Shown here: positions 6,168-60,979 of the stretch, in pieces
Layout of the letters: each line of letters starts with the position of its first letter
How positions within the stretch are numbered: the stretch's first letter is position 1
Source of the DNA: Patescibacteria group bacterium
GTDB lineage: Bacteria > Patescibacteriota > Minisyncoccia > Phycocordibacterales > JAKFXT01
Reading direction: 5' to 3'
Assembly: GCA_038063555.1 (NCBI GenBank)
Contig: JBBTUX010000010.1
Coordinates: forward strand, 22,936 to 86,935
DNA: 64,000 bases
The notes under the pieces: generated by a model
What the model was told of the DNA's origin: nothing
What the model saw: the letters and a program-made list of their open reading frames with translations, nothing else
The model's database searches: none
Position numbers and translations under genes: made by a program

Positions 6168-7652
6168 ATGAAACGAGCGTCATCAGAAGGAATTGAAATA
6201 CCAAAGGAAGTTCTTTCCGTTTCTTCCGATTTAGGAAAAGCGGGATTTGAAAACTATCTTATTGGTGGCTGTGTTCGCGACCTGCTTCGCGGTCAAAATC
6301 CCAAAGATTGGGACATTACGACCAATGCCACGCCGGAAGAAATTTTGAAGATTTTTCCCCACACTTTTTATACCAATACTTTTGGCACAGTTGGAGTGGT
6401 AAACAAAGAAACAAACAACGAATCCCTTAAAACAATTGAGGTCACAACTTACAGAGAAGAAGGAACTTATTCAAATGCAAGACACCCAGATGAAGTGAAG
6501 TTTAGTAAAAATATAAATGATGACTTGAAGCGTCGCGATTTCACCATTAACGCAATTGCTCTGGACCCCCACAATGGAAAAGTGATGGATCCATATGACG
6601 GTCAAAAGGACATAAAGGACAAAATCATACGCGCAGTGGGGAAAGCCGAGGACAGATTTGAGGAAGATGCTTTAAGAATACTCCGCGCTATACGACTTTC
6701 CTCTGAAATTGGCTTTATTATTGAGGCAAATACCGAAAAAGCCATACAAAATAAGGCTAAAACGCTAGAAAAGATATCCAAAGAACGTATTAGAGACGAG
6801 TTTTGCCGTATTCTAATGTCTCCCGAACCTATGAAAGGCCTTAATTTAGCCCTAAAATTGGGAGTTTTACGGTATGTTGCCAAAGATTTAGAGAGGGGAA
6901 TTGGCGTAAAGCAAAACCAGGCTCACAAATATGATGTTTTTGAGCATAATTTACGCACCCTACAACACGCGGCGGATAAAAAGTATGATTTGGACTTACG
7001 TCTTTCCTCGCTTTTTCATGATATTTCCAAACCAGAAACACGTCGCTTTTCACGTGAAAAGAATGATTATACCTTTCACGGTCATGACGTAGTCGGTGGC
7101 AAATTAGTCAAAAAAATCCTTACAGAGCTTAAATTCCCGTCCAACCGAGTTGAAAAGATAGGGAAGATGGTCCGTTGGCACATGTTCTTTTCAGACCCAG
7201 AACAAATCACACTTTCTGCGGTAAGACGACTCATTTCTAATGTTGGTAAAGAAGATGTTTGGGAGCTTATGAATTTGCGCATTTGCGACCGCATAGGCAC
7301 CGGCAGACCCAAAGAAAACCCTTATAGATTCAGAAAGTATAAATCTATGGTAGAAGAGGCGTTACAGGACGCCGTTTCCGTTGGAATGCTCAAAATAAAA
7401 GGGGATAGCATTATGAAAGTGCTCGGGGTACCACCCGGACCTAAAATCGGTTATATTTTACACGCTCTTTTTGAAGAGGTGTTGGATAAACCTGAATTAA
7501 ACACTTTAAAATACTTAGAAAAAAGAGCAGGAGAATTGAACAAACTTGGAATTGGCGAATTAGAGAAATTGGGTAAAAAGGGTAAAGAAAAAAAAGAACG
7601 AGAACAAGAGAAAAAAGTAAAAGAAATAAGAGGAAAGTATTTCGTAGAATGA
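6168..7652 (+). CDS. cca: CCA-adding tRNA nucleotidyltransferase with HD domain and Lys/Glu-rich C-terminal tail
   Basis: GGCVRDLLRG...DWD polymerase-beta-type head motif and an HD region. Start ATG sits inside a TTTCACATGAAAC palindrome. Confidence 0.8.
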   Translation: MKRASSEGIEIPKEVLSVSSDLGKAGFENYLIGGCVRDLLRGQNPKDWDITTNATPEEILKIFPHTFYTNTFGTVGVVNKETNNESLKTIEVTTYREEGTYSNARHPDEVKFSKNINDDLKRRDFTINAIALDPHNGKVMDPYDGQKDIKDKIIRAVGKAEDRFEEDALRILRAIRLSSEIGFIIEANTEKAIQNKAKTLEKISKERIRDEFCRILMSPEPMKGLNLALKLGVLRYVAKDLERGIGVKQNQAHKYDVFEHNLRTLQHAADKKYDLDLRLSSLFHDISKPETRRFSREKNDYTFHGHDVVGGKLVKKILTELKFPSNRVEKIGKMVRWHMFFSDPEQITLSAVRRLISNVGKEDVWELMNLRICDRIGTGRPKENPYRFRKYKSMVEEALQDAVSVGMLKIKGDSIMKVLGVPPGPKIGYILHALFEEVLDKPELNTLKYLEKRAGELNKLGIGELEKLGKKGKEKKEREQEKKVKEIRGKYFVE

Positions 7653-14587: not shown

Positions 14588-14621
14588 AGCGAGCTTAAAG
14601 TTTTATAGCTTCTAGGTTTTT

Positions 14622-14649
14622 CCGCCAAAGGCGGATCCGCCTCAGGCGG
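14622..14649. repeat. GGCGG-family tandem palindromes (intergenic copy)
   Basis: CCGCCaaaGGCGGATCCGCCtcaGGCGG. A 19/20 match to the in-CDS copy at 56190-56209. Confidence 0.6.
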
Positions 14650-14686
14650 AAGCTTTAATACAAATACAAAAAATTCAGAGAGTTGC

Positions 14687-14724
14687 AAAACCCCTCCGCC
14701 TTAGGCGGAGGGGTTTTGTTTTTT
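14687..14724 (+). terminator. Rho-independent terminator built on the CTCCGCCTTAGGCGGAG palindrome
   Basis: aaaaCCCCTCCGCCttaGGCGGAGGGGttttgtttttt. Confidence 0.75.
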
Positions 14725-14795: not shown

Positions 14796-15134
14796 ATGTC
14801 CTGGTACAAAAATCTTTCGCCGGTTGAACAAGAATTTTTTCGAATGCAAGAAGAAAAAAAAGAAGAGGAGGCATTATTCACAGCTGACTCCGAACTGACA
14901 GACGAGAAAAAGTCTCCTTTCTGCTTATGCGGAGAAAAACCACAAGCTGGCTATTACATCAGACAGAATGACGAGGGAGAAACTGGTGAACACAAGCGGT
15001 GGCGTTGCGCTTGTACAAATACCGAGTGTCCAATTCTCATGTGGGAGGGTTGGCACAACACCAAGGGTGAAGCGTTATCCGATTGGGCAAAGTTCATAAA
15101 AAACGAAAAAAATAAAAAACCCAAAAAGAAATAA
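14796..15134 (+). CDS. Small Cys-rich hypothetical protein (possible zinc-ribbon), cassette bracketed by GGCGG-type terminators
   Basis: 112 aa. CLCGEKP...RWRCACTNTECP Cys pairs. Lys-rich tail. Confidence 0.45.
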   Translation: MSWYKNLSPVEQEFFRMQEEKKEEEALFTADSELTDEKKSPFCLCGEKPQAGYYIRQNDEGETGEHKRWRCACTNTECPILMWEGWHNTKGEALSDWAKFIKNEKNKKPKKK

Positions 15135-15154: not shown

Positions 15155-15188
15155 AGCCCTCCGCCTTAGGCGGAGGGCTTTGCTTTTT
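15155..15188 (+). terminator. Rho-independent terminator, same palindrome family
   Basis: aGCCCTCCGCCttaGGCGGAGGGCtttgcttttt. Confidence 0.7.
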
Positions 15189-15331: not shown

Positions 15332-17518
15332 ATGGAAACAAAAAAATATTCTCTGGATTTTGCTGGAGAAACTTTAGTCGCAGAATTTAGCGACCTTGCC
15401 AATCAAGCCAATGGTTCAGTAATTTTGAGATATGGCAACACAACTGTTTTAGCAACAGCTGTAATGGGCAAACACGATAAAGAAAGTGATTATTTTCCCT
15501 TAACGGTAGATTATGAAGAAAAGTTTTATGCGTCCGGCGTGATAAAGGGCAGTCAGTATGTTCGTCGCGAAGGTAGGCCCGGGGATGATTCAATTTTGCG
15601 TGGTCGCATACTTGATAGAACAATTCGTCCACTTTTTGATCAATCAATTCGTCGCGAAATCCAAGTGGTAATAACGACTTTGGCGGTTGATAAACACGAC
15701 CAGGACATTCTGGCTGTTTTGGCGGGGTCTCTTTCAATTGCTACCTCTGACATTCCTTGGCATGGACCAGTGGGAAGTGTCAGAGTTTCTAGAAAAAAAG
15801 GCCTGCCTGCCGCGACGGGTACGGCGCAGGCAGGAAGTAAGGATTGGATATTAAATGCCACTTTTGCAGACAGAACAGAAGATACCTTGGACTTTGACAT
15901 GGTTGTTTGTGGCAAGGACGGACTCATAAATATGATAGAAGTTGAAGCTGGTGAAATATCAGAAGATGAAATGAAAGAAGCGTTAGAATTTGCTAGTAAA
16001 AATATTTCTATTCTTGAAGAGTTTCAGAAAAAAATAATCAAAGAAATTGGAAAAGAAAAACAAAAGTTTGAAAAAACTAATTTAAGCGAAATAGAGTTAA
16101 CTCTGTTTTATGGAATTGTGACTCCAAACTTAGACAAAGCGATATTTTCTGGCTCGGGAAAGGTGGGAATTTACGCCTTAAAAGAAACTTGGATGAATAA
16201 ATTTGCAGAAAATTTTCCAGAAGGAAAGTCTGCTCTTGCAGAAAATATATATGATGAAGCGATAAACGATTGTCTCCATAAAGAAACAATAGAAAAAGAA
16301 AGGCGGCCCGATGGGAGAAAACTAAACGAGTTACGATCTTTATTTGCTAAAGCTGGAGGAATATCCGACGTGTTGCACGGTTCAGGTATTTTTTATAGAG
16401 GTGAAACTCATATGTTTTCCGCGCTAACTTTAGGTGGACCAAAAGATTCGCAAACAATTGATTTTGTTGACGGATCAGAAAAGAAAAAAAGATTTTTACA
16501 TCATTATAATTTTCCGCCATTTTCTGTTGGTGAAGTGGGCAGAATGGGTGGAACAAACAGAAGAATGGTTGGGCACGGCGCTTTGGCGGAAAAATCCCTG
16601 CGCGCCGTAATTCCCCACAAAGATATTTTTCCTTACACCATAAGATTGGTTTCGGAAACCCTTTCTTCAAATGGTTCGAGTTCAATGGGAAGTGTTTGCG
16701 CCTCATCTTTAGCTTTGATGGACGGAGGCGTGCCAATTAAGAGAGCTGTTGCGGGAATTGCTATGGGTTTAATGTATAAAAATGAAAATGAATACAAAAT
16801 ACTAACGGACATTCAAGGCCCAGAGGATGAACATGGTGATATGGATTTTAAGGTAGCAGGAACCAGCGAGGGGATTACCGGCGTGCAACTTGATGTAAAG
16901 GTTTCTGGAATTTCTCTAAAAATATTGGGGGAGGCACTTACACAAAGCAAGAAAGCCCGATTGGAAATTATAGAAACATTAAACAAAGCGATTGAGAAAC
17001 CTAGAGATTCAATTTCACCGCGTGCACCAATGATTGTGGTAATAAAAATAAAACCAGATCAAATTGGACTCATTATTGGTTCTGGGGGCAAAACTATAAA
17101 TGAAATTCGTGAATTAACAGAAACAGAAATTGACATTGAAGATGACGGGTCTGTTTTCATAACAGGAAAGAATGGGGGAGCCGAAAAAGCAAAAAAAATA
17201 ATTGAGGAGATGACCCGCGAATACTTCAAGGGAGATCGTTTCAACGGCATGGTTGTAAAAATTTTGGATTTTGGCGCTTTTGTAAAAATTGGTCACAACA
17301 CTGAAGGACTGGTTCACATTTCGGAAATTGCACCCTTCCGCGTAGAAAAAGTTTCTGAAATTCTGAAAGAAGGAATGCTGGTTCCAGTTGTAGTAAAAGA
17401 GGTGGACGAAAGAGGTCGGGTTAATCTTTCCATCAAACAAGCAGATAAAGATTTTGCCGAGCGCCATGGAGCAAAGCCACCGCAAAACGCTAGTGGAGGT
17501 AGTGCCACAAAAGTGTAG
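15332..17518 (+). CDS. pnp: Polyribonucleotide nucleotidyltransferase (PNPase)
   Basis: Two RNase PH-like domains, a KH domain (...IKPDQIGLIIGSGGKTINEI...) and an S1 domain (...GDRFNGMVVKILDFGAFVKI...). Confidence 0.9.
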   Translation: METKKYSLDFAGETLVAEFSDLANQANGSVILRYGNTTVLATAVMGKHDKESDYFPLTVDYEEKFYASGVIKGSQYVRREGRPGDDSILRGRILDRTIRPLFDQSIRREIQVVITTLAVDKHDQDILAVLAGSLSIATSDIPWHGPVGSVRVSRKKGLPAATGTAQAGSKDWILNATFADRTEDTLDFDMVVCGKDGLINMIEVEAGEISEDEMKEALEFASKNISILEEFQKKIIKEIGKEKQKFEKTNLSEIELTLFYGIVTPNLDKAIFSGSGKVGIYALKETWMNKFAENFPEGKSALAENIYDEAINDCLHKETIEKERRPDGRKLNELRSLFAKAGGISDVLHGSGIFYRGETHMFSALTLGGPKDSQTIDFVDGSEKKKRFLHHYNFPPFSVGEVGRMGGTNRRMVGHGALAEKSLRAVIPHKDIFPYTIRLVSETLSSNGSSSMGSVCASSLALMDGGVPIKRAVAGIAMGLMYKNENEYKILTDIQGPEDEHGDMDFKVAGTSEGITGVQLDVKVSGISLKILGEALTQSKKARLEIIETLNKAIEKPRDSISPRAPMIVVIKIKPDQIGLIIGSGGKTINEIRELTETEIDIEDDGSVFITGKNGGAEKAKKIIEEMTREYFKGDRFNGMVVKILDFGAFVKIGHNTEGLVHISEIAPFRVEKVSEILKEGMLVPVVVKEVDERGRVNLSIKQADKDFAERHGAKPPQNASGGSATKV

Positions 17519-26952: not shown

Positions 26953-28598
26953 TTATTTCTTCTTTGCAAAAGCAAAATAGGTTGATATTTAAGGCCGTTT
27001 CTGTGTTTGTAGTATTAGCGTTTTTATTTTCACCTATTCTACCTGCCAAAAAAGTCGAGGCGCTAGTTGTGAGTTGTCCAGTTTGTGAGGCCATACTTAC
27101 CACCATAAGCACTGTGTCGACCTACATAATTGGCGGTGGCATAGCGTTTTTGGTTACTAAAGAAAAAGTCCTAGACCCGATTTTCAAAATGATTGCGCGC
27201 ATGATTTTACGGGGCATAACACAAAGCATTATCCAATGGGCAGCTGGTGGCTTCCAAGGCAATCCATCTTTTATACAAAACCCCACACAATTTTTTGCCA
27301 ATGTGGCTGACCAGGCCATAGGACAAATAATTTATAACAACGCCGGCCTACAATGGATGTGTAGTCCATTCCGGCTTCAATTGAAACGCGCTCTTATTTA
27401 CAATCGCTCTTTTACCCAAAGGTCACAGTGTACCTTGACCGGCATAGTCGGAAACTATGAAGGATTCATAAGTGGAGTTAATAATGAACTTGGAACTTTG
27501 GGTGGTTGGAATGCCTGGAACGTAATGGCAACGCAACCAGAAAATAATCCCTATGGAGCATACGCACTTTTTAATCTTCAGGTTGAAGCCGCTATTACAA
27601 CTGACAAAACGCGCGAGCTCAATCTTCTAAATTGGGGTAAGGGATTTTTCTCTTGGAAAGAGCCTGGATGTGTTCAAAGGGCAATGGCAAATAAGCAAAT
27701 ACAAGATACAAGAGATGTTTACGAAGGTGAGGGAGGCGGAGCTCCACTTCCTCAAGTAGTAAGTGAGGACGCTGCGGGTAATGTGAATCTTTACGATCGA
27801 GTGCCAGAGAATACCAACCCAAACAAATGCGACACAATCACTCCCGGAAGCGTCATCGCTGACTCCGTCAACAAAGCTCTTGGTGCGGGGCAAGACGAAC
27901 TTATTGCGGCGGATGAAATCGGTGAGGTTTTGGGAGCCGTGCTTTATGGACTGGTTACCAATGTTTTGGGGGATGCTGGTTTGTTTGGCGCCGGCGGAGG
28001 GGGTGGCGTATATTCAAATGATTACGAGGCACAAGTAGAGCAAGAGGATAGAGAGGTTTTTCAAACAACTAAAAACGACACTGTTTCTCAAATAGTTTCT
28101 AGTGCAAACGATGAAAATAGTTATATTGCAACTAAAAATCAATCTATTGCTCGTATAGAAATTTCAGCCCAAAAAGTGCGTGACATTATAGGGTGCTATC
28201 AACAAAGAATTGCTCTTGCCGCAAGTAGCACAGAGCCGGTTAATATAGCTCTGTTCCAAAATGAAATTGCTAGCGCCTCAACCACGCTTGCTCAAGTTCT
28301 CTTAAGAAAAGCACCTCTTCAGAGGGACATATCAATAGGGGAAAACAACTTAAACAATTTAAATTCATTGGGCGACCGAATGAGTGCTTTGCCGTATGAA
28401 AGAAGAGATTCTTTCCGCTCCCTTGCAAATGAATTTGCAAACTTGCTTTCTCAAATACATTACCAAGGAGATGTGATACAGGCAGAATATGAACGCGATT
28501 TCACCATTCCTGAAAGTTTGAAAACAATAGATACTCAGAGTGATCAGAAGTTCCAACAATGTCAAAATCCGCCTGAAACAAACAATCAAGCAGTATGA
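26949..28598 (+). CDS. Hypothetical membrane-anchored large extracytoplasmic protein (first gene of T4SS-like cluster)
   Basis: 549 aa. N-terminal TM, Gly-rich GAGGGGGV segment. Overlapping start/stop with neighbours (operon). Confidence 0.45.
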   Translation: MIISSLQKQNRLIFKAVSVFVVLAFLFSPILPAKKVEALVVSCPVCEAILTTISTVSTYIIGGGIAFLVTKEKVLDPIFKMIARMILRGITQSIIQWAAGGFQGNPSFIQNPTQFFANVADQAIGQIIYNNAGLQWMCSPFRLQLKRALIYNRSFTQRSQCTLTGIVGNYEGFISGVNNELGTLGGWNAWNVMATQPENNPYGAYALFNLQVEAAITTDKTRELNLLNWGKGFFSWKEPGCVQRAMANKQIQDTRDVYEGEGGGAPLPQVVSEDAAGNVNLYDRVPENTNPNKCDTITPGSVIADSVNKALGAGQDELIAADEIGEVLGAVLYGLVTNVLGDAGLFGAGGGGGVYSNDYEAQVEQEDREVFQTTKNDTVSQIVSSANDENSYIATKNQSIARIEISAQKVRDIIGCYQQRIALAASSTEPVNIALFQNEIASASTTLAQVLLRKAPLQRDISIGENNLNNLNSLGDRMSALPYERRDSFRSLANEFANLLSQIHYQGDVIQAEYERDFTIPESLKTIDTQSDQKFQQCQNPPETNNQAV

Positions 28599-31021
28599 GA
28601 AAGAAATTTGAATACATAATAGTAATTTCAATAATTCTTCAAAGTATTTTTGGATTTGTTTTGCCGGCGCAGGCGCAAGAAAATGACAATGTAAGTGCCA
28701 CATTTAATGCCGAAAATGCCACACAAATAAATAATGCCAACACCACCATTCCCTCAGGAGGATTGGAAAACCCTGCAAACAATCCAAGCAATCCAAATGC
28801 TTACAGTCCTCAAGCCGCCGCACAAGAAGCGCAACAAAAACAAGAAGCCGCTAAAAATGCGAAAAAAACTGAAATTCCAGAATTATGCACTTGGAAAGAG
28901 AAAGTTACGTTAAACATATCGGAATGCGTGGGAAACCTTCTTTTAGTCATAGGAGGCGCTTTTGTGGGAATAACAGGAACATTTTTAAACTTCTCAATCG
29001 AGATTACAGTTTTACAAATGTCAAAATTTGTTAATGACGTTGGAGTTATTACCGCGGGATGGAAAACTTTCCGCGACCTTGCCAATATGTTTTTCATCTT
29101 TATATTAATTTATATTGCCATTGCCACAATTATAGGTGCTGCCAGTATGAATACCCGCAAATCGCTGGTAATGGTAATAATTGTAGCCCTTCTTATTAAC
29201 TTCAGTATGTTTTTCACTAAGGTAGTAATTGACGCATCAAATATTCTGGCCATTCAATTTTATAATTCTATAAGCAAAGGGCCTAGTTCTTCAAATAATG
29301 GTTTCTCTTGGGTTTTTATGAACGCTTCGCGTCTTACCACCCTTTACCCGACCGACAGTTCTGCGACTGATAGTGCTAAAGCTAAGGGGTATAAAGGATC
29401 AAATATTCTTCTAATTGGTTTCTTCGGGCTTATATTTGGGATTATTTTATCTTTTTGTTTTCTTGCTATAGGAATTTTATTTGTTATAAGATTTGTAGTT
29501 TTACTTTTCTTAATGATGCTTTCGCCAATTGCCCTTTTGGGTCTTGTTGTAAACAGAATGGGAGAAGTTTGGACTAAGTGGCTTAACACATTATTTAGAG
29601 AAGCCATTTTTGCTCCGACTATTATGGCCATGCTTTGGATTATTGCTTCAATAGTGAACAATACGGCCTTCATAAATGCAATAAACCGAAATGGTCAAAC
29701 AGATGGAGGATTTTATAATATCATTGGGGAAACAATCAAAGATTCCATGGCTGTGGCAGTTAATTTTGGAATTTTGATAGCAATGCTCATAGGAGCTCTC
29801 ATTATTTCAAAAAACTTCAGTGGTTCAGCCGGCGGCGCCGTCTTGGGCGCCGCCGAAAAGTGGTCCAGAAAAGCAGCTGGTGGCATGACTTTCGGCGCCG
29901 CCGGCTTTGCTGGAAGAAAAAGCTTTGGCTGGGCAGGAAACAAATTGGCTGAAAATAAGGGGCTTGAACGCTTTGCGGCTAGAAATCCTTTTGTTGGTGG
30001 AAATATTTTGAGAGCGGCAAAGGGAGTTGCGAGTTCTAGTTTTGACGCTCGTGGCGCAGGAATCAGTGCCTTGGGAGATGCCGGAGGGAAGGGTGGTTAC
30101 AGAGGCATACTTGAGGCGCAAGTTAAAGAACGCCAACGCAGAGCGACAGAACTTAAAGATGTAAAAATCTATTCTGATGAAAAAACTGAAACCGAAGCCA
30201 CAGGCAGAGAAGAAGCTATAAAAGGATATGACACTCGCATTGCTGAATTAAATAAAAAAGCCGCTGAATTGAGAATGGTAACACCGAAAGACGTGGCTGA
30301 TGGAGAGAGATTGGCGGCAGAAAGAGAAAATATTGAAAAACAAAGAGTGGGAACTATAAATCTAAGAAACGAAGCCCAAGCCAAACTAAAAGAAATTCAT
30401 ACAGATCAAGGCAGAACAAAAACAGGTGAGCAGGTTTATGGTGAGCAACTAATGCAAGGACCAATTGCTGCTGTCATGAAGAGGCTTTCAGCAGAACGTG
30501 AAAAGTCTTCCAAAAAGATAGACGAGCCATACGCCAAAGATCGATATAAACAAGAAACCAAATATGCCGATGATATTACTCTTAATAGACTCGATGCTCA
30601 AATAGAAGAGCTTAGGGCACAGCTAGAAAGGGGAGCGAAAGCGGGGGTCAATGCTTCAGAAGCTATCGCGCGACACACCGAAGAACTTTCTAAGGTTGCT
30701 GAGAAAATGTCTAAAGTGGATTCAGAGGTCAAGTGGGGTCGCGCTAGTAACGAAGAAAGAGAGGTCTTAAAAACTGAGAGTGAAAATCTTAAAAAGAAAA
30801 TCGATGAGATTCAAAAAAACTCAAGTCGAGCGGCTAATTTACAAAAAGAACTTTTAGAAAAACAAATAAGCGACCTTAAAAATCAAAAAAGTAAAATCAA
30901 AGGTAAAAGAGCAACAGAAAAATTCCGCGAAGTGGTAAAAGAGTTTGGGTATGATGAAGAAAAAAAACAAGAAAAACCAACACCTGAAGTAAAAAACGAT
31001 GGTGGGGAAGCGAAAACATAA
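28595..31021 (+). CDS. Polytopic membrane protein, TrbL/VirB6-like, with long Lys/Glu-rich coiled-coil C-terminal extension
   Basis: Signal peptide, then ≥6 TM helices, then a ~350-aa charged tail. Architecture and context (next to PrgI-like and VirB4-like genes) suggest VirB6/TrbL. Confidence 0.4.
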   Translation: MRKKFEYIIVISIILQSIFGFVLPAQAQENDNVSATFNAENATQINNANTTIPSGGLENPANNPSNPNAYSPQAAAQEAQQKQEAAKNAKKTEIPELCTWKEKVTLNISECVGNLLLVIGGAFVGITGTFLNFSIEITVLQMSKFVNDVGVITAGWKTFRDLANMFFIFILIYIAIATIIGAASMNTRKSLVMVIIVALLINFSMFFTKVVIDASNILAIQFYNSISKGPSSSNNGFSWVFMNASRLTTLYPTDSSATDSAKAKGYKGSNILLIGFFGLIFGIILSFCFLAIGILFVIRFVVLLFLMMLSPIALLGLVVNRMGEVWTKWLNTLFREAIFAPTIMAMLWIIASIVNNTAFINAINRNGQTDGGFYNIIGETIKDSMAVAVNFGILIAMLIGALIISKNFSGSAGGAVLGAAEKWSRKAAGGMTFGAAGFAGRKSFGWAGNKLAENKGLERFAARNPFVGGNILRAAKGVASSSFDARGAGISALGDAGGKGGYRGILEAQVKERQRRATELKDVKIYSDEKTETEATGREEAIKGYDTRIAELNKKAAELRMVTPKDVADGERLAAERENIEKQRVGTINLRNEAQAKLKEIHTDQGRTKTGEQVYGEQLMQGPIAAVMKRLSAEREKSSKKIDEPYAKDRYKQETKYADDITLNRLDAQIEELRAQLERGAKAGVNASEAIARHTEELSKVAEKMSKVDSEVKWGRASNEEREVLKTESENLKKKIDEIQKNSSRAANLQKELLEKQISDLKNQKSKIKGKRATEKFREVVKEFGYDEEKKQEKPTPEVKNDGGEAKT

Positions 31022-54368: not shown

Positions 54369-56831
54369 ATGGCAAAAATCTCAAAAAAAGAAAAAGCTGA
54401 AAGTAGCGCCAAAGCCAAGCGTTTGGTTCTCCTTGACTCTCACGCTATTTTGCACCGTGCCTTTCACGCGCTTCCAGATTTTTCTACAGGGAAAGGTGAG
54501 CCAACAGGAGCCCTTTATGGACTTTCAGCCATGCTCATTAAAATAATCAATGATTTAAAGCCAGATTATGTTGCCGCTTGTTTTGATTTAGCGGGGCCAA
54601 CCTTTAGACACGACGCTTATGAAGGATACAAGGCGAAGCGCATAAAAACTGATGACAATTTAATTACGCAAATAAATAGAAGCCGAGATATTTTCAAAGC
54701 GTTCAGTATTCCAATTTATGAATACGCTGGTTTTGAAGCCGACGATATGCTCGGGACAATTGTAGAGCAAGTATCCGCCAAAGGCGGATTCGCCTCTGGC
54801 GGAAAAGAAATAGATGTAATTATTGCTTCAGGGGACATGGACACTATGCAATTAATTAATGATAAAAAAGTAAGGGTTTACACTCTCAAAAAAGGAATAA
54901 ATGACACTATAATTTATGATGAAAAAGCCGTAATAGAAAGGTTTGGTTTTCCACCCAAACTTTTGCCGGACTACAAAGGGCTTCGTGGAGACCCGTCGGA
55001 TAATATTATTGGTATTGCTGGAATTGGAGAAAAAACAGCCACGGATTTGATTGTTAATTTTGGCACAATTGAAAATATTTATAAAAAGTTAAAAAAAGAT
55101 AAAGAAGCATTTGTTAAAGTTGGTATTAAAGAAAGAATAATAAAGTTGCTTGAAGAGGGGGAAGAAGAGGCGGAGTTTAGCAAGGAATTGGCCACCATTA
55201 GAAAAGACGCGCCCATTGAGTATAAAATTCCAAACGAAGAGTGGACCAAGCAATTTAAAATTGAAGAAGCACTGTCTTTGTTTTCTGACTTGGAGTTTAG
55301 GGCCCTGTCTCGGCGCATAAAGGAGGTTTTTGGAAAAAATGTCCCGGCACCCGAAGAGACGCCTGAAGGGATCGGGACCTCCACCTCTGAAAGTATTCAG
55401 AGCGTCGGGGAGAGTGACATAAAGGAAGTTGGCCTTGCTCTTTGGGTTATTAATTCTAATTACACTAATCCGACACAGGACGACATTTATCATTACGCTA
55501 AAACAAATGAATTTGAAAAAGCCAAAAGTATTATTTTTGCCGAAATAAAAAAGCAAAAGCTGGATTTTATTTACGAAAAAATAGAAAAACCGCTTATTCC
55601 CATTTTGAAAAAAATGCACGAAAGAGGCATTCAGGTTGATACTAAATATTTAAAAGAACTTTCTAAGGAATATACTATTGAATTGCAAAAGTTTGAGAAA
55701 GTTATATATCGTCATGCTGGTTTTGAATTTAATATAAATTCTCCGAAACAACTTGGTGAAGCGCTTTTTGAAAAAATGGGATTGGGTTTAAAAAATCAAA
55801 AGAAAACTTCAACTGGGCAAAAATCCACGCGCGAGTCCGAGCTTGAAAAAATGAAGGAATTGCATCCAATAATTGCCGAGATTCTTTCTTACCGAGAATT
55901 ACAAAAACTCCTTTCAACTTACATAGACAATATTCCAGAGATGGTTGGCGTTGACGGTCGTTTGCATTGCGATTTCATTCCGACCGGCTCTACCACAGGA
56001 CGCTTTTCTTCGGCAAATCCCAATATGCAAAATATCCCAATAAAAACAGAGCTAGGAAGGAGAATCAGAAGCGCTTTTATTGCCGAAAGAGGATTTCTCT
56101 TGGCATCCTTTGACTATTCACAAATTGAACTTAAAGTTGCCGCTTTTCTTTCGGGGGACGAAAAATTGATTGAAATTTTTTCCTCCGAAGGCGGATCCGC
56201 CTCTGGCGGAAAAAGGGCAGATATTCATACATCGGTCGCAGCCCAGGTTTTTGGTGTGCCAGAGGAATTGGTGGACAAAGAAATGCGTCGCCAAGCTAAA
56301 GTGATAAACTTCGGAATTCTTTATGGAATGGGAGTGAATGCTTTAAAACAAAATCTAGGAACAAATAGAGCGGACGCCCAGAAATTCTATAATGATTATT
56401 TCAAAAATTTTTCAGGTATTGCCAATTATTTAAACAAAGTGAAAGCGGAGGCCTTTAGAAAAGGTTATACGGAAACATTTTTTGGCCGCCGCCGCTATTT
56501 TGAGGGAATTAAATCACCCCTTCCCTTTATTCGTGCGGCGGCGGAGCGTATGGCTATAAATGCGCCAATTCAAGGGACGCAAGCGGATATTATAAAAATT
56601 GCTATGAGTAGAATTGAAGAAATGATTAAAAAAGAAGGATTGGAAAAAGAGGTTTTTCCGCTTCTACAAATTCACGACGAACTTATTTATGAAATAAAAG
56701 AGGATTTAATTGAGAGTATTGCTCCCAAAATTCAGAAAATTATGGAAGATGTAATTTTACCCAAAGAAATTTATGGAATTAGGCTTAACGCCAGCTTCTC
56801 AAAAGGTAAAAATTGGGGGGAGATGTATTAG
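54369..56831 (+). CDS. polA: DNA polymerase I (5'-3' exonuclease + polymerase domains) with two in-frame palindromic-repeat insertions
   Basis: 5' nuclease motifs (...LLDSHAILHRAF..., GIAGIGEKTA). Polymerase motifs DYSQIELKVAAFLS, RRQAKVINFGILYG, QIHDELIYE. Inserted GGFASGGK (54783-54802) and GGSASGGKR (56190-56209). Confidence 0.9.
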   Translation: MAKISKKEKAESSAKAKRLVLLDSHAILHRAFHALPDFSTGKGEPTGALYGLSAMLIKIINDLKPDYVAACFDLAGPTFRHDAYEGYKAKRIKTDDNLITQINRSRDIFKAFSIPIYEYAGFEADDMLGTIVEQVSAKGGFASGGKEIDVIIASGDMDTMQLINDKKVRVYTLKKGINDTIIYDEKAVIERFGFPPKLLPDYKGLRGDPSDNIIGIAGIGEKTATDLIVNFGTIENIYKKLKKDKEAFVKVGIKERIIKLLEEGEEEAEFSKELATIRKDAPIEYKIPNEEWTKQFKIEEALSLFSDLEFRALSRRIKEVFGKNVPAPEETPEGIGTSTSESIQSVGESDIKEVGLALWVINSNYTNPTQDDIYHYAKTNEFEKAKSIIFAEIKKQKLDFIYEKIEKPLIPILKKMHERGIQVDTKYLKELSKEYTIELQKFEKVIYRHAGFEFNINSPKQLGEALFEKMGLGLKNQKKTSTGQKSTRESELEKMKELHPIIAEILSYRELQKLLSTYIDNIPEMVGVDGRLHCDFIPTGSTTGRFSSANPNMQNIPIKTELGRRIRSAFIAERGFLLASFDYSQIELKVAAFLSGDEKLIEIFSSEGGSASGGKRADIHTSVAAQVFGVPEELVDKEMRRQAKVINFGILYGMGVNALKQNLGTNRADAQKFYNDYFKNFSGIANYLNKVKAEAFRKGYTETFFGRRRYFEGIKSPLPFIRAAAERMAINAPIQGTQADIIKIAMSRIEEMIKKEGLEKEVFPLLQIHDELIYEIKEDLIESIAPKIQKIMEDVILPKEIYGIRLNASFSKGKNWGEMY

Positions 56832-56852
56832 TTGTTGTAATTACTGGAATAA

Positions 56853-57392
56853 GTGATAATAGAAAAAATATTTATGAAACAAAATGATTTTGCTGAAAGT
56901 ATGCTTAAAGGGCGTATGGCGGAAACTCTTTTTGAGGGATTAATGAAAGATTCAGGAAATAAAGTATATAGATTCGGCTATGAAGCAATTACTCAAAATC
57001 TTGTTCAGCTCGGAGAAAGTTTTGATAAATATGGGGAAGTAAGTGAAAAAATAAGAGCTATTCCGGACTTTATAGTCATTGATAAAAAGGGAAAACCACA
57101 ATTTGTTGAGGTAAAATTTAGATGGGAACCAAACGAACCACTTTACGATCAAAGTGTCGGTATTCTTAATCGCGTTGCGAAGTATTGGAACGCCCCCGTT
57201 GTTTTTATGAATTGTTGGGAACAACCATTTTTTCGAGTCAGTGTTCCTCCATATTTTGATAAAAATAAAAGATTAATATATAAACCAATAACATCAATTT
57301 CTGAATGGAGTATTGAGCAGAAGATTTACAACAAATATGAAAATTTGATCCACAAGTACTTAACCCCAACACTAGTTCCTCCCAAAAAATAA
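56853..57392 (+). CDS. Hypothetical protein, possible PD-(D/E)xK-type nuclease fold
   Basis: ...IPDFIVIDKKGKPQFVEVKFR... fits a D...E-x-K pattern. Start may be 56874. Confidence 0.3.
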   Translation: MIIEKIFMKQNDFAESMLKGRMAETLFEGLMKDSGNKVYRFGYEAITQNLVQLGESFDKYGEVSEKIRAIPDFIVIDKKGKPQFVEVKFRWEPNEPLYDQSVGILNRVAKYWNAPVVFMNCWEQPFFRVSVPPYFDKNKRLIYKPITSISEWSIEQKIYNKYENLIHKYLTPTLVPPKK

Positions 57393-57395
57393 AAC

Positions 57396-58085
57396 ATGCT
57401 CTACATTTTCTATGGAAACGATAGGTTGAGAGCTTTAAAAGCAACTGAGGCAGTTTTAGAAAAATCTAATTCCAGTAAAAGAATTTCCTTTGATGAAAGT
57501 TTGGAAAATCCAATAGAGCTTTTATCATTAGCTACGATTAATGATTTATTTGCCGAAAAAACTTTTATTAAATGTGATGGAGTTTTGGAAAGTGCTTATA
57601 AAGAAGAAGTACTTAAATACACAGAATCATTTCAAGAATCTCAAAACACCTTTGTTTTTTTGGAAAATGCTATAAAAGCAGACACGCTTAAGATTTTAAA
57701 AAAGCATTCGGAAAAAGTAGAAGAATTTAAAATAATTGATAAGAAGAAAGAAAAATTTAATATTTTTGAAGTTAGCGATGCCTTTGGTTTGCGCGATAAG
57801 AAAACTCTCTGGGTTTTATATACCAAAGCATTGGATGCTGGAAAAAGCGGAGAAGAAATTGTCGGCACTATCTTTTGGCAATTAAAATCAATGCTGCTCG
57901 TTTCAAAGGGCGATGCTTCAGGACTTAGTCCATTTGTGGCAAATAAGGCCAAACAATTTTTGAAAAATTACAAGAGCGAGGAAATAGAAAAAATGTCCTT
58001 TGATCTCTTAAAACGTTATCACGAATCTCGTCGCGGGCGTTATGATTTAGAAACCACCCTAGAAAGATTTATTCTTTCGGTTTAG
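57396..58085 (+). CDS. holA: DNA polymerase III delta subunit-like (HolA-like)
   Basis: N-terminal MLYIFYGNDRLRALKATEAV resembles HolA (lYGeD.f.l). Right size and context after polA. Moderate confidence only. Confidence 0.4.
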   Translation: MLYIFYGNDRLRALKATEAVLEKSNSSKRISFDESLENPIELLSLATINDLFAEKTFIKCDGVLESAYKEEVLKYTESFQESQNTFVFLENAIKADTLKILKKHSEKVEEFKIIDKKKEKFNIFEVSDAFGLRDKKTLWVLYTKALDAGKSGEEIVGTIFWQLKSMLLVSKGDASGLSPFVANKAKQFLKNYKSEEIEKMSFDLLKRYHESRRGRYDLETTLERFILSV

Positions 58086-58094
58086 AAAACAATA

Positions 58095-58125
58095 CCCCGC
58101 GCGAAGCGCGGGGCTTTGAAGCATG
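58095..58125. terminator. Bidirectional GC-hairpin terminator
   Basis: aataCCCCGCGCGaagCGCGGGGctttgaag. Confidence 0.6.
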
Positions 58126-58158
58126 GTGCAGTTAAGAGATGTCCCCTCCAGGTCTAGC

Positions 58159-58494
58159 TTAGGTTTTCGTGAGTGCCCCCTGAAGCTTTTGGATTGCTCC
58201 AGCCCGTATGGGCTCGGGCACATCCTCGAGAAGGCGAGCTAGTTCGGAGACGTGTTTGTCTACCTCACTGTTCAACCTGGACGCTTCTCTCGTTATCCTT
58301 TCGGTGATGTGCCCAGGAAGATCCTCAGCATTTTCCCATAGATCGATCGATGCGATAGTTCCGTTGCCGAACCCAGAGGCTCCCCGACCGAGCACCACTT
58401 TTTCGGCGAGATGCATGTTCGAGACATAACCCACAATTGATCTGTCGCGACCGTCTACACCGCAGTCCCAGCACTGAAAAATCGGTTTCATCAA
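58159..58494 (-). CDS. Hypothetical protein encoded in a GC-rich (~52%) island
   Basis: 111-aa ORF (MMKPIFQCWDCG...) with composition distinct from the flanks. Confidence 0.4.
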   Translation of the reverse strand: MMKPIFQCWDCGVDGRDRSIVGYVSNMHLAEKVVLGRGASGFGNGTIASIDLWENAEDLPGHITERITREASRLNSEVDKHVSELARLLEDVPEPIRAGAIQKLQGALTKT

Positions 58495-58571
58495 AGACTC
58501 CTACGTTTACGAGAAAAGACTCGCTCTGAAAGCTAGGTTACTCTTGCAAAAGAGAAAGTCAATTATTAATA

Positions 58572-59729
58572 CTAATTCCGGCTATTAAGCCAGAGTTTTT
58601 CGTAGAAGTAAGTTACTACCGCTCCAAATGAGATTAGCCAAATGAGAGCAAGTATTAACCAGCCCAAAATCGGAATAAAGCAAAGGAGAGAAAGGACTAG
58701 AGCGCCAATGGTTATTGTCTTCCAAGAGAGGTGAAGTGCCTCATCTCTTTTTACCCACTTTGCAATTAAAGATCCTGCTACAAGCGCAGTCGAGGCCTTG
58801 GATAGAATTATCAATAGGGCAAACACAGCAAGGACACCCCAACCTATAAACCAGCCCAAAATTGTTGCAAGAAGTATAATTCCCGCAATTGGCATAACGA
58901 TTGCCGTTATAAAACCGCGAAGCATTGATTGGCCGGTTTTTGTGAGAGAATTTGTTGTTACTTCATTTGCAAACTTTGGCATAAAGAAGAAAAGAAAAAG
59001 TGCGCCTATAAGCATCATTAGAAATGAAGTGGTGGCAAAACCGGCAATAAGAGCTCCAACCCAAGAGGCAGAATTCTTGTTTTCTTTTACGCCTCTGCCA
59101 GCTTTTTCTTCAAAGGTTACTTTGCCAGTAACTACTCCTGTAGGAATTTCCACTTCTTTTTTAGATTTATAATTTAAATTACCTTTTATTTTTGCGTCTG
59201 GTCCGAAAGAAAGTTTTTCATCCGCTTTTACAGAAACATCTCCGTTTATTGTGCCGTTTATAACAATTTCTCCACCTATTATGCGGGCTGTTTTTGCGGC
59301 AATTCCATCAAAAGTAACTATGCCGCCCGCTATAATCAGATCTCCGCCAATATTTGTTTTTGAAGAAATGGTGACGGTGCCTCCAGCCACCATCAAATCT
59401 TTAACAATTAAAGAGTTCACCAAAACATTACTTCCTGCAATACGAGCGTCCCCGCCAACTGCGCCAAGAAGAGAAACTGTGGCTCCTAGAAGCCAAGCGT
59501 CATCAGAGATATTTTCTGAAACCAAAACAGTGGCTCCAGCCGCAAGAGCGTCCCCAAAGATTATTTGTTGAATGGAAACGCTTTTTCCAGCCACATAAAC
59601 ATTTTCGCGAATTTCCGTGTCTCTCTTAACCGAAACATTCCCATCTTTTTCGTGCAAAAAGAGAGCGGCGTTTGTCGAAAGGGGGAGAAATAAGCCCAAG
59701 ACAAGAGAGGTCAAAAGAATCTTTTTCAT
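58572..59729 (-). CDS. Secreted beta-helix-repeat (bactofilin-like) protein with C-terminal polytopic membrane domain
   Basis: Signal peptide, then repetitive G-rich beta-strand repeats (...AGATVLVSEN...GATVSLLGAVGGDARIAGSNVLVN...AGGTVTISS...) typical of bactofilin-like (DUF583) folds, then 4-5 TM helices. Confidence 0.45.
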   Translation of the reverse strand: MKKILLTSLVLGLFLPLSTNAALFLHEKDGNVSVKRDTEIRENVYVAGKSVSIQQIIFGDALAAGATVLVSENISDDAWLLGATVSLLGAVGGDARIAGSNVLVNSLIVKDLMVAGGTVTISSKTNIGGDLIIAGGIVTFDGIAAKTARIIGGEIVINGTINGDVSVKADEKLSFGPDAKIKGNLNYKSKKEVEIPTGVVTGKVTFEEKAGRGVKENKNSASWVGALIAGFATTSFLMMLIGALFLFFFMPKFANEVTTNSLTKTGQSMLRGFITAIVMPIAGIILLATILGWFIGWGVLAVFALLIILSKASTALVAGSLIAKWVKRDEALHLSWKTITIGALVLSLLCFIPILGWLILALIWLISFGAVVTYFYEKLWLNSRN

Positions 59730-59902
59730 ATGTTTATAGAGTTATACTGCCTTTTAATAATAACATGTCGTCACAAGTTTTTTCTTGCTAGAAAAACTCG
59801 CGACCCGACAAGACAATATAGTGCCTAAGCACTTTTTGTCCGCGACCGCCACGCTCCGGCTCGGACAAGTTTTAAACTTTGTCCCACAAACTTTAAAACT
59901 TG

Positions 59903-59974
59903 TCCGCCCGGGAGGAATCGAACCTCCGACCAATTGCTTAAAAGGCAACTGCTCTACCCCTGAGCTACGGGCGG
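59903..59974 (-). tRNA. tRNA-Lys (anticodon TTT), no encoded CCA
   Basis: Reverse complement CCGCCCG-TA-GCTC-AGGGGTA-GAGC-A-GTTGC-CTTTTAA-GCAAT-TGGTC-GGAGG-TTCGATT-CCTCC-CGGGCGG-A. Followed on the minus strand by a palindromic hairpin at 59848-59902. Confidence 0.85.
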
Positions 59975-60023
59975 TTAATCAATAGTGTAGCAATTTACAA
60001 TAGAATTCCCCAAAAGAGAAGGT

Positions 60024-60431
60024 TTATAAAGGCAAATCAAGCGCAATAGCACCGGCGCCAAAATAGATTAAAGAAAAACAAACGGCGCCAAAGAGAACAA
60101 AGAAAAGAATACTTTCTTGTTCGGGGGATTCCTTTATAATTTTCATTGTAATTATAAGCACAGAAAGAACTCCCAAAATAAGGGCGGCAATTTGCGTAAA
60201 AAGTCCTATGATTAAAAGAATGCCGCAAACCAGTAAAATAAAACCAAAAATAAAAGAAAAGAATTTTCCAGGCATTAATTTAAACTTGGCAAATACCTCG
60301 CTATTGTGATTACGTTCTTTACCCAAAGCGCGACTAGCCAAAACTAAAGTAATTATGCCAATCACAATACGTAACACGGAAATAGTTACAAACCAATAAT
60401 TGAGTGCATTTTCAAAAACAGAAAATATCAT
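60024..60431 (-). CDS. DoxX-family membrane protein
   Basis: 135 aa, 4 TM. ...LRIVIGIITLVLASRALGK... is DoxX-like. Confidence 0.5.
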   Translation of the reverse strand: MIFSVFENALNYWFVTISVLRIVIGIITLVLASRALGKERNHNSEVFAKFKLMPGKFFSFIFGFILLVCGILLIIGLFTQIAALILGVLSVLIITMKIIKESPEQESILFFVLFGAVCFSLIYFGAGAIALDLPL

Positions 60432-60481
60432 TATGATATTCTAACATAATGATATAGAGCGTAGAACATGGAACATAAAAC

Positions 60482-60979
60482 ATGAAAAAGGAGATTTGTT
60501 TAATACTGGACAATATTAGAAGTGCAGAAAATGTGGGCTCCATTTTCCGCACCTCGGACGCTGTCGGAGTTTCTAAAATTTTTCTTATTGGCATAACGCC
60601 TTGCCCCATAGATAGATTTGGCAGAGAAAGAAAAGACATTGCTAAATCTGCTTTGGGAGCAGAAAAAACAATTGAATGGGAGTATCGCAAAAACGCTGTT
60701 CAACTTTTGCGGGAATTAAAGAAAAGAAAATTCTTAATAATTGCACTTGAACAAGATGAGAAAGCCCTGGATTACAAAAAAATATCCGCCAGAGGCGGAC
60801 CAGCCTATGGCTGGAAAGGGAGGACAGCTTTAATCATTGGCAATGAAGTCACGGGAATTTCCAAAGAAATATTAAAAATGAGTGATTGTGTAGTCGAAAT
60901 CCCAATGAAGGGCAAAAAAGAATCATTAAATGTTTCCGTTGCGACGGGTGTTGCCCTGTATCGTTTGCTCAAGATATAA
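60482..60979 (+). CDS. SpoU/TrmH-family RNA 2'-O-methyltransferase; contains an in-frame GGCGG-type palindrome
   Basis: ...ENVGSIFRTSDAVGV...LIIGNEVTGIS...VEIPMKGKKESLNVSVATGVALY. The palindrome CCGCCAGAGGCGG-ACCAGCCTATGGCTGG (60786-60814) encodes ARGGPAYGW. Confidence 0.75.
   Translation: MKKEICLILDNIRSAENVGSIFRTSDAVGVSKIFLIGITPCPIDRFGRERKDIAKSALGAEKTIEWEYRKNAVQLLRELKKRKFLIIALEQDEKALDYKKISARGGPAYGWKGRTALIIGNEVTGISKEILKMSDCVVEIPMKGKKESLNVSVATGVALYRLLKI

Follow-up and report, generated by a model that had tools for sequence, protein, structure and literature searches.

We examined a 64-kb stretch of contig JBBTUX010000010.1 (64,000 nucleotides, hereafter the window; 37-40% GC) from a metagenome-assembled genome (MAG) of a Paceibacteria-type member of the Patescibacteria, recovered from Hainich groundwater. 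Two genes in the window, polA (54369..56831, + strand; an intact open reading frame (ORF) of 820 amino acids) and a gene of the SpoU/TrmH methyltransferase family (60482..60979, + strand; 165 amino acids, PF00588), called trmH here, carry copies of a short GC-rich palindromic repeat. A hairpin scan showed that the repeat unit is 30 nt long and consists of two abutting, GC-rich 15-nt hairpins in inverted orientation, with stems of 6 bp and loops of 3 nt, the consensus being TCCGCC-NRA-GGCGGA followed directly by TCCGCC-TYN-GGCGGA. The window holds four copies of this twin hairpin, two in polA, one in trmH and one between genes, and the sequence CCGCCNNNGGCGG was seen seven times where 0.02 occurrences were expected. 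The original prediction had described a family of palindromic 20-mers in the same four places. These are indeed the only places in the window that match the family (none were expected), and every sequence quoted was found where it had been placed or within one base of it, but the unit is the 30-nt twin hairpin and not a 20-mer.

The intergenic copy (14621-14650, without assigned strand; TCCGCCAAAGGCGGA TCCGCCTCAGGCGGA) matches the consensus perfectly and starts 34 nt past the stop codon of a gene for an NYN-domain protein. Folded as single-stranded DNA, it has a free energy of -13.3 kcal/mol (z = -4.8). The first polA copy (54774-54803, + strand; TCCGCCAAAGGCGGA TTCGCCTCTGGCGGA) lies in the 5'-nuclease domain, has one stem mismatch (TTCGCC), reads S136-AKGGFASG-G145 and is flanked by GTA and AAA. 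The second (56181-56210, + strand; TCCTCCGAAGGCGGA TCCGCCTCTGGCGGA) lies between motifs A and B of the polymerase domain, also has one stem mismatch (TCCTCC), reads S605-SEGGSASG-G614 and is flanked by TTT and AAA. The copy in trmH is a variant (60785-60814, + strand; TCCGCCAGAGGCGGA CCAGCCTATGGCTGG) that reads SARGGPAYGW; its second hairpin is CCAGCC-TAT-GGCTGG, in which pairing is kept through two compensatory base-pair changes, and the twin-hairpin fold is the only one possible for this copy (-12.7 kcal/mol). All three genic copies are read in the frame TCC GCC nnn GGC GGA, which gives Ser-Ala-x-Gly-Gly twice. No further copies were detected in the 8.4 kb upstream or the approximately 9 kb downstream of the window, and about 81 kb of the host genome (window plus flanks) therefore holds just these four.

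Sequences from the two nearest relatives of the window genome, L001 and L251, were used to ask whether the genic sites are occupied elsewhere. The syntenic relative L001, whose PolA is 81% identical, has none of the three genic copies, and the same is true of the likewise syntenic L251 (PolA 74% identical). A codon alignment to L001 placed the insertions at GTA/AAA and TTT/AAA in polA and at ATA/AAA in trmH (slashes mark the junctions), with the right flank retained in each case. Both polA decapeptides are unique to the window protein among 120 PolA homologues, and TrmH has an 8-residue insertion at the position of the element when compared with the solved TrmH structures 1zjr and 1v2x. Judged from these alignments, two copies of the element joined polA and one joined trmH after the Paceibacteria lineage of the window had split from its closest sequenced relatives. 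The prediction of in-frame, hairpin-forming insertions resembling Rickettsia palindromic elements (RPEs) in the two genes is thus borne out by the orthologue alignment it had proposed, and the contrary outcome, that distant PolA or TrmH orthologues carry the same inserted residues, was not seen, the 119 other PolA homologues all lacking them. Four independent assemblies of the host species have the same polA with both inserts, which excludes an assembly artefact.

Each element adds 10 codons, and the net gain in length in the alignments is 7-9 codons because adjacent loop residues also differ. The predicted figure of about 8 codons for each polA copy therefore describes the net gain over orthologues (8-9 codons) but not the element itself. 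A small, consistent deletion of the target on insertion was considered and ruled out: at one locus in another genome (L049, described below) exactly 30 nt were added, and the window sites keep their right flanks, so that the shortfall in length sits in nearby variable residues. There is no target-site duplication at the window junctions TTT/AAA, GTA/AAA and ATA/AAA, nor at TTT/GAA in L049. As a separate observation, the PolA of L251 carries a 10-residue insert, SRQNLEAKSQ, in the loop that corresponds to site 1 (at about 600-640); its DNA begins TCCCGCCAAAA and holds a tandem CCAAAACCTAGA, so that either decay of an element or a duplication of separate origin could account for it.

Mapping of the inserts onto the protein, which had also been suggested, was performed with an AlphaFold model of the window PolA (mean predicted local distance difference test (pLDDT) score 83.7). 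Both inserts fall in low-scoring coil between helices or strands. The first is in the coil between the helix at 124-140 and the strand at 148-153, where residues 142-144 score below 50, and the second is in the coil between the helices at 598-606 and 619-628, where residues 609-614 do so. Relative to Taq polymerase, insert 1 occupies the loop that precedes the ...ILTADKD strand of the 5' nuclease (an ASGDMD-type strand in the window PolA), and insert 2, between motifs A and B, occupies the 'VFQEG-RDIHT' loop.

We scanned one genome per species (596 Gb in total) with TCCNCCNNNGGCGGATNCGCCNNNGGCGGA, for which the 22 fixed bases give a chance expectation of about one match. At least 120 loci from at least 107 MAGs carry the twin hairpin; the loci listed are named L001 and so on, and the counts given below refer to these matches and the 119 copies among them. 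By label, 61 of the listed loci belong to Patescibacteria and 59 to other bacteria, including 12 from Omnitrophota, 13 from PVC phyla, 4 from Ignavibacteriota/Bacteroidota, 11 from 'uncultured Gammaproteobacteria' and 11 that are unclassified, with the remainder from Elusimicrobia, Chloroflexota, Firmicutes, Margulisiibacteriota and Firestonebacteria. Local GC content ranges from 32 to 70%, and some of the contigs exceed 1 Mb. The listed loci and the window (about 1 Mb) contain 115 perfect twin hairpins, compared to none in shuffled sequences. The inserts themselves are specific to the lineage, as had been proposed, but the phenomenon is not confined to it. With just four copies in about 81 kb of the host genome, recurrence of the palindrome is shown mainly across genomes and not genome-wide in the host.

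The element did not match any sequence in an E. coli collection (5,426 genomes), and plasmids in PLSDB gave only partial matches at chance level. A phage origin was rejected, as 2.9 million IMG/VR contigs gave a single match. An Rfam scan of the window returned five tRNAs as the sole matches and no family over the element. A search of the accessible literature, made for the repeat itself, for its peptide and for palindromes lying in frame in bacteria of the candidate phyla radiation, found no description of the element, and wherever GGCGGATCCGCC occurs in the papers returned, the context has nothing to do with bacterial repeats. The presence of the same 30-mer in unrelated genes of more than 100 uncultured bacteria looks like the work of a very small, apparently undescribed mobile element.

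The copies are tightly constrained. Just four loop positions vary freely, and the order of the loops, NRA and then TYN, is kept in approximately 95% of the copies, with the two loops being complementary to each other in 21 of the 119. True single units are rare. Six of the 115 perfect twin hairpins have other stems with fully compensated pairs, and these variants, like the trmH copy, can form the twin-hairpin fold alone. Hairpin pairing is thus preserved through compensatory changes. A long single hairpin, which is the minimum-energy fold of canonical copies, was considered as the conserved structure and rejected, since the compensated variants keep only the twin fold. The flanks are unrelated to each other save for a TTY/RAA junction, with T at -2 in 83% of copies, T or C at -1, A at +1 in 61% and A at +2 in 79%; the profile is T-rich from -3 to -1 and A-rich from +1 to +3, and there is no tag. 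The idea that loop bases are copied from the target, which would amount to a hidden duplication, was discarded because mutual information between loop and flank is at the null level.

A stop-free frame of at least 150 codons surrounds 79 of the 119 copies, and in 69 of these 79 the copy is read in the SAxGG frame (frame 0); copies of this kind make up 58% of all those listed (69/119). At loci below 50% GC, the share in frame 0 is 46 of 50. The other 10 genic copies are in other frames, and about one third of all copies are intergenic. In the genes of the window, TTY/RAA falls on a codon boundary 46% of the time, and the frame bias has a p value of about 1e-14. A preference for the target predicts only this 46% in frame 0 and by itself fails to explain the bias; the simplest addition is selection on the peptide.

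The genes that carry the element encode diverse proteins and include dnaG, uvrB, mfd, pheT, cysS, class I and class II aminoacyl-tRNA synthetases, lnt, arsA, ctpA, an E2 acyltransferase, atpD, dnaJ, purA, a GH57 protein and a solute-binding protein. Homologous aminoacyl-tRNA synthetase genes of L018 and L049 have insertions at different sites, each of which is empty in the other gene, and the L049 junction is an exact addition of 30 nt between TTT and GAA. The proteins of L113 and L123 (78% identical) have an orthologous insertion in common, with one GGA-to-GAA change. We also observed that the PheT (PheRS beta) frame of L023 (4444-6939) holds two twin hairpins 1 kb apart, and contains a match to NlpC/P60 between the B3_4 and B5 domains.

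We consider it probable that the window carries a 30-bp, non-autonomous palindromic element that is mobilised in trans, recognised as a hairpin and inserted without duplication of the target. Copying would depend on an enzyme able to recognise the hairpins once folded in single-stranded DNA; candidate movers are a hairpin-specific nuclease of the HUH/Y1 or GIY-YIG type, or host replication and repair acting on the hairpin. Insertions may land in any frame and at any place, and selection would then spare the copies that give the protein surface a short, flexible loop of small residues, or that lie between genes, and remove the rest, with the inserted codons being translated and not removed. The frame bias, the diversity of host genes and the position in loops would fit insertion followed by selection, the PolA copies being predicted by the model to lie between elements of secondary structure.

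Several points weigh against this interpretation. A mobilising gene was not found on clustering 2,417 ORFs that neighbour the listed loci, and among 87 genes beside intergenic copies Pfam identified only housekeeping families; neither set contained a Y1 transposase, RAYT or TnpA. The small GIY-YIG genes that do recur near some copies come with their own, different repeats of the SRM type, and the window has no such gene. Polymorphism between filled and empty sites was not seen within the host species, the four assemblies being identical, and recent mobility is therefore deduced from comparisons between species alone. Three of the four copies in the host genome lie within 6 kb (54774-60814), and with four copies in about 81 kb, local copying is as likely as transposition across the genome. 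Translation of the insert is read from the frame bias. The taxonomic labels of the MAGs were taken as given, and the interpretation does not explain why Patescibacteria and the distant Ignavibacteriota have the same stem sequence.

The main rival is host-driven template switching. Here there would be no dedicated transposase: the hairpin would stall replication, and template switching or microhomology repair by the host would copy the element to a new TTY/RAA site, genomes having been seeded by horizontally acquired genes that already bore a copy. The lack of a linked or recurrent mobiliser gene among the listed loci is in keeping with such copying, as are flanks that share only T-rich and A-rich microhomology, the clustering of the host-genome copies and the high stability of canonical copies as folded single-stranded DNA. 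However, a microhomology of three bases is weak, and the exact L049 junction has no sign of slippage. The strict inverted arrangement of NRA and TYN, along with identical stems across phyla, looks like specific recognition by a protein, and we regard copying by the host machinery alone as unlikely.

The sole recurrent family of neighbours in the clustering, followed up with a profile search, consists of small GIY-YIG genes, which are present at 7 of the 120 listed loci. Ssn-type GIY-YIG proteins are site-specific nucleases of single-stranded DNA with hairpin repeats of their own, NTS/dRS3 and SRM; they cut next to GC-rich hairpins and are found in many phyla (PMC11893778). The seven Ssn-like genes, with SRM-type repeats (GTCATTCC...GGAATC) within a few kb of twin hairpins, are at L007 (4690-5124), L035 (7488-7781), L036 (3418-3900), L067, L068, L088 and L096. 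In L035 the gene begins 19 nt past a run of hairpin units, and in L007 it begins approximately 170 nt past two copies. The twin hairpin could then be a target or satellite of an Ssn system, that is, a divergent repeat of the SRM/NTS kind, and its presence beside or within SRM-like repeats in L010 and L011 would agree with this. SRM/NTS repeats resemble the twin hairpin in being GC-rich hairpins with very short loops that are distributed over many phyla and sometimes occupy the same spacers beside GIY-YIG genes. Unlike them, the twin hairpin has a TCCGCC/GGCGGA stem and lacks the GTC (GTCWY) tag, and it misses the published search motif HGTCWY-N(0-2)-YYVSBRH-N(0-5)-WNVSBRG-N(0-2)-RNCYNB (Methods of PMC11893778). 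In the accessible text of the same article, SRMs appear as repeats that flank or surround genes, with no mention of in-frame insertion of the kind seen for the twin hairpin, and Ssn is described as modulating transformation and not as a transposase. No small GIY-YIG gene was found in the window or its approximately 17 kb of flanks, or at 113 of the 120 listed loci, and co-location at the rest may merely reflect shared spacers in which repeats accumulate. An Ssn origin is accordingly improbable, and more so than copying by the host.

Three further observations were made at these loci. In L035, a sequence like the 5' half of a tRNA with a long variable arm (7385-7480; GGAGGGATGGCCGAGTGGTTTAAGGCGG...) abuts three or four hairpin units, although ARAGORN calls no tRNA there. 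In L011 (1400-1429), the twin hairpin is nested within an SRM-like repeat (gtcattgcg, the element, then agcgaagcgaagcaatct). In a Kiritimatiellae MAG (L010 4569-4752 and 6390-6572; L007; L063), it is part of a mosaic intergenic repeat of about 180 bp that also carries an SRM-like hairpin and recurs at several loci with the same flanks.

The strong bias towards the SAxGG frame and the location of copies in loops could also mean that the decapeptide itself is selected, having been gained repeatedly as a flexible linker of Gly, Ser and Ala or as a modification motif, with the palindrome as a by-product. The codons are invariant, however: all 127 SAxGGSAxGG matches in the listed loci are at most one mismatch from the same DNA, and no such inserts with synonymous, non-palindromic codons were found there. 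Since every SAxGGSAxGG derives from the same DNA, the unit of inheritance is the DNA and not the peptide. Selection of the peptide would also leave unexplained the intergenic third of the copies, the 10 genic copies in other frames, the stem changes that are compensatory in DNA even when the peptide alters (PAYGW in trmH), and the asymmetry of NRA and TYN, which has no explanation at the level of protein. We consider this origin very improbable. Least credible of all is an artefact of assembly, sequencing or library preparation, or an ancestral feature of the host genes: all listed matches do come from MAGs, but the sequence recurs in the four assemblies of the host species and in short-read assemblies and megabase-scale contigs from many laboratories, it lies in frame and in loops with compensatory variants, and the inserts are absent from the 119 other PolA homologues.

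The preferred reading, a hairpin-recognised element mobilised in trans, was then set against known systems. RPEs, known only from Rickettsia, are approximately 150 bp long and make up ten families (Ogata et al. 2000 and 2002, reviewed in PMC10969869). The twin hairpin is like them in being a palindrome inserted in frame into unrelated and often essential genes with no known linked transposase, and in adding, as the frame bias suggests, a translated peptide that the fold accommodates. It is unlike them in its length (30 bp versus about 150 bp) and host range (many phyla versus Rickettsia; PMC10969869), and in consisting of two minimal hairpins with a fixed stem.

Repetitive extragenic palindromes (REPs) and REPINs are imperfect palindromes of 20-40 bp whose inverted doublet is a non-autonomous replicating unit (PMC3116915, PMC3733652), and REPs are described as extragenic and marked at one end by the tetranucleotide GTAG or CGTC (PMC3733652). 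The twin hairpin shares with them a similar size class, the inverted doublet, the lack of autonomy and the formation of hairpins in single-stranded DNA, and differs in having no GTAG/CGTC tag and in its frequent location inside long frames. REP/REPIN elements go with RAYT (Y1) transposases, none of which was seen near the listed copies. REP sequence classes are characteristically shared among related bacteria alone, whereas the stem of the twin hairpin spans phyla. The element is therefore closest to RPEs in behaviour and to REP/REPIN in size and doublet architecture, and it fails defining features of each, namely the size and host range of RPEs and the tag and extragenic location of REPs.

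Miniature inverted-repeat transposable elements also lack autonomy and are short, and their halves repeat each other in inverted orientation, but they are usually 50-500 bp, which is far longer than 30 bp, and the twin hairpin lacks the target-site duplication. Palindrome-associated elements derived from IS200/IS605 are characterised by hairpin ends, by insertion on the 3' side of a fixed short target without duplication and by a Y1 enzyme, TnpA, that acts in trans. The twin hairpin shows no duplication and a T-T-Y preference 5' of the element; no TnpA was found near the listed loci, and the element is too short for guide sequences such as those in IS608. The double-hairpin elements and mobile GC clusters of fungal mitochondria also consist of paired GC-rich hairpins in an AT-rich genome, occur in both coding regions and spacers and have no known mobiliser. 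They are organellar, however, and longer, and their sequence is specific to a lineage.

The window also contains two terminator-like hairpins that bracket a small ORF. In the first (14685..14719, + strand), upstream of the ORF, additional G/C pairs lengthen a single 15-nt unit, TCCGCCTTAGGCGGA, and a run of T comes after it; the second (15155..15179, + strand) lies downstream of the ORF. The two share an identical 19-mer, CCTCCGCCTTAGGCGGAGG (14693-14711 and 15158-15176). Both have the GC-rich stem-loop and T-run of an intrinsic (Rho-independent) terminator, which the twin hairpins do not, as A-rich sequence follows them. The palindrome core had been predicted to form both terminators, and a hairpin unit is indeed shared; however, as each terminator holds one unit and looks ordinary, membership in the element family is plausible but unproven. 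The bracketed Cys-containing ORF (14796..15134, + strand; 112 amino acids) is an ORFan with itself as the sole database match, and was rejected as a linked gene. The ORF directly after polA (56853-57392), which encodes 179 amino acids with a PD-(D/E)xK-like motif (IPDFIVID...VEVKF) and has no match in Pfam, NCBIfam or the PDB, was also rejected, being present in L251, which is without elements; it is absent in L001. Genes of the NYN, UPF0102 and Xer types that occur in the window are not enriched near copies at the listed loci.

Other palindromes were seen in the window. A second, unrelated GC-rich palindrome of 33 nt, CCTGCCTGCCGCGACGGGTACGGCGCAGGCAGG (15802-15834), lies in frame within pnp (15332-17518), where it reads LPAATGTAQAG at the position of a 13-residue gap in the solved PNPase structure 5yjj. 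A metagenome scan for CCTGCCTGCCGCG-N7-CGGCGCAGGCAGG gave at least 120 matches with unrelated flanks; among the matches listed, most contigs have 55-69% GC and the favoured readings are LPAAxxxAQAG and LPAPxxxRQAG. Since this palindrome also recurs with unrelated flanks, coding palindromes may be a broader class. A third GC-rich palindrome, CGGCGGCGCCGTCTTGGGCGCCGCCG (29830-29855), lies within an ORF (28595-31021) and gives the local peptide FSGSAGGAVLGAAEK; the 808-residue product of this ORF has no match in Pfam or the PDB.

It is an evenly balanced possibility that the twin hairpin ranks with the smallest mobile elements described so far, as a 30-bp palindrome that codes for protein, crosses phyla and colonises essential genes in frame, by means of either an undiscovered hairpin-specific enzyme or the universal machinery of replication and repair, and that it is one of several such families. 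In-frame selfish palindromes have so far been treated as a peculiarity of Rickettsia, and here a far smaller element does likewise in more than 100 genomes, in genes that include those of replication, repair and translation. If the proposal is true, short palindromic insertions would be a general and overlooked source of loop insertions in the proteins of uncultured bacteria, and the element a concrete source for the numerous short, unexplained insertions in protein loops of Patescibacteria and further uncultured lineages. Its copies would form a natural experiment on which sites in proteins tolerate a flexible decapeptide, and their presence or absence could be used as a marker for fine-scale phylogeny. 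Annotators can mask or flag the element, so that the inserts are not mistaken for features of domains or for errors. The finding also poses a sharply defined problem, that of the enzyme which would recognise TCCGCC-NRA-GGCGGA hairpins and insert them at TTY/RAA, and an enzyme with such activity on single-stranded DNA could be a useful tool.

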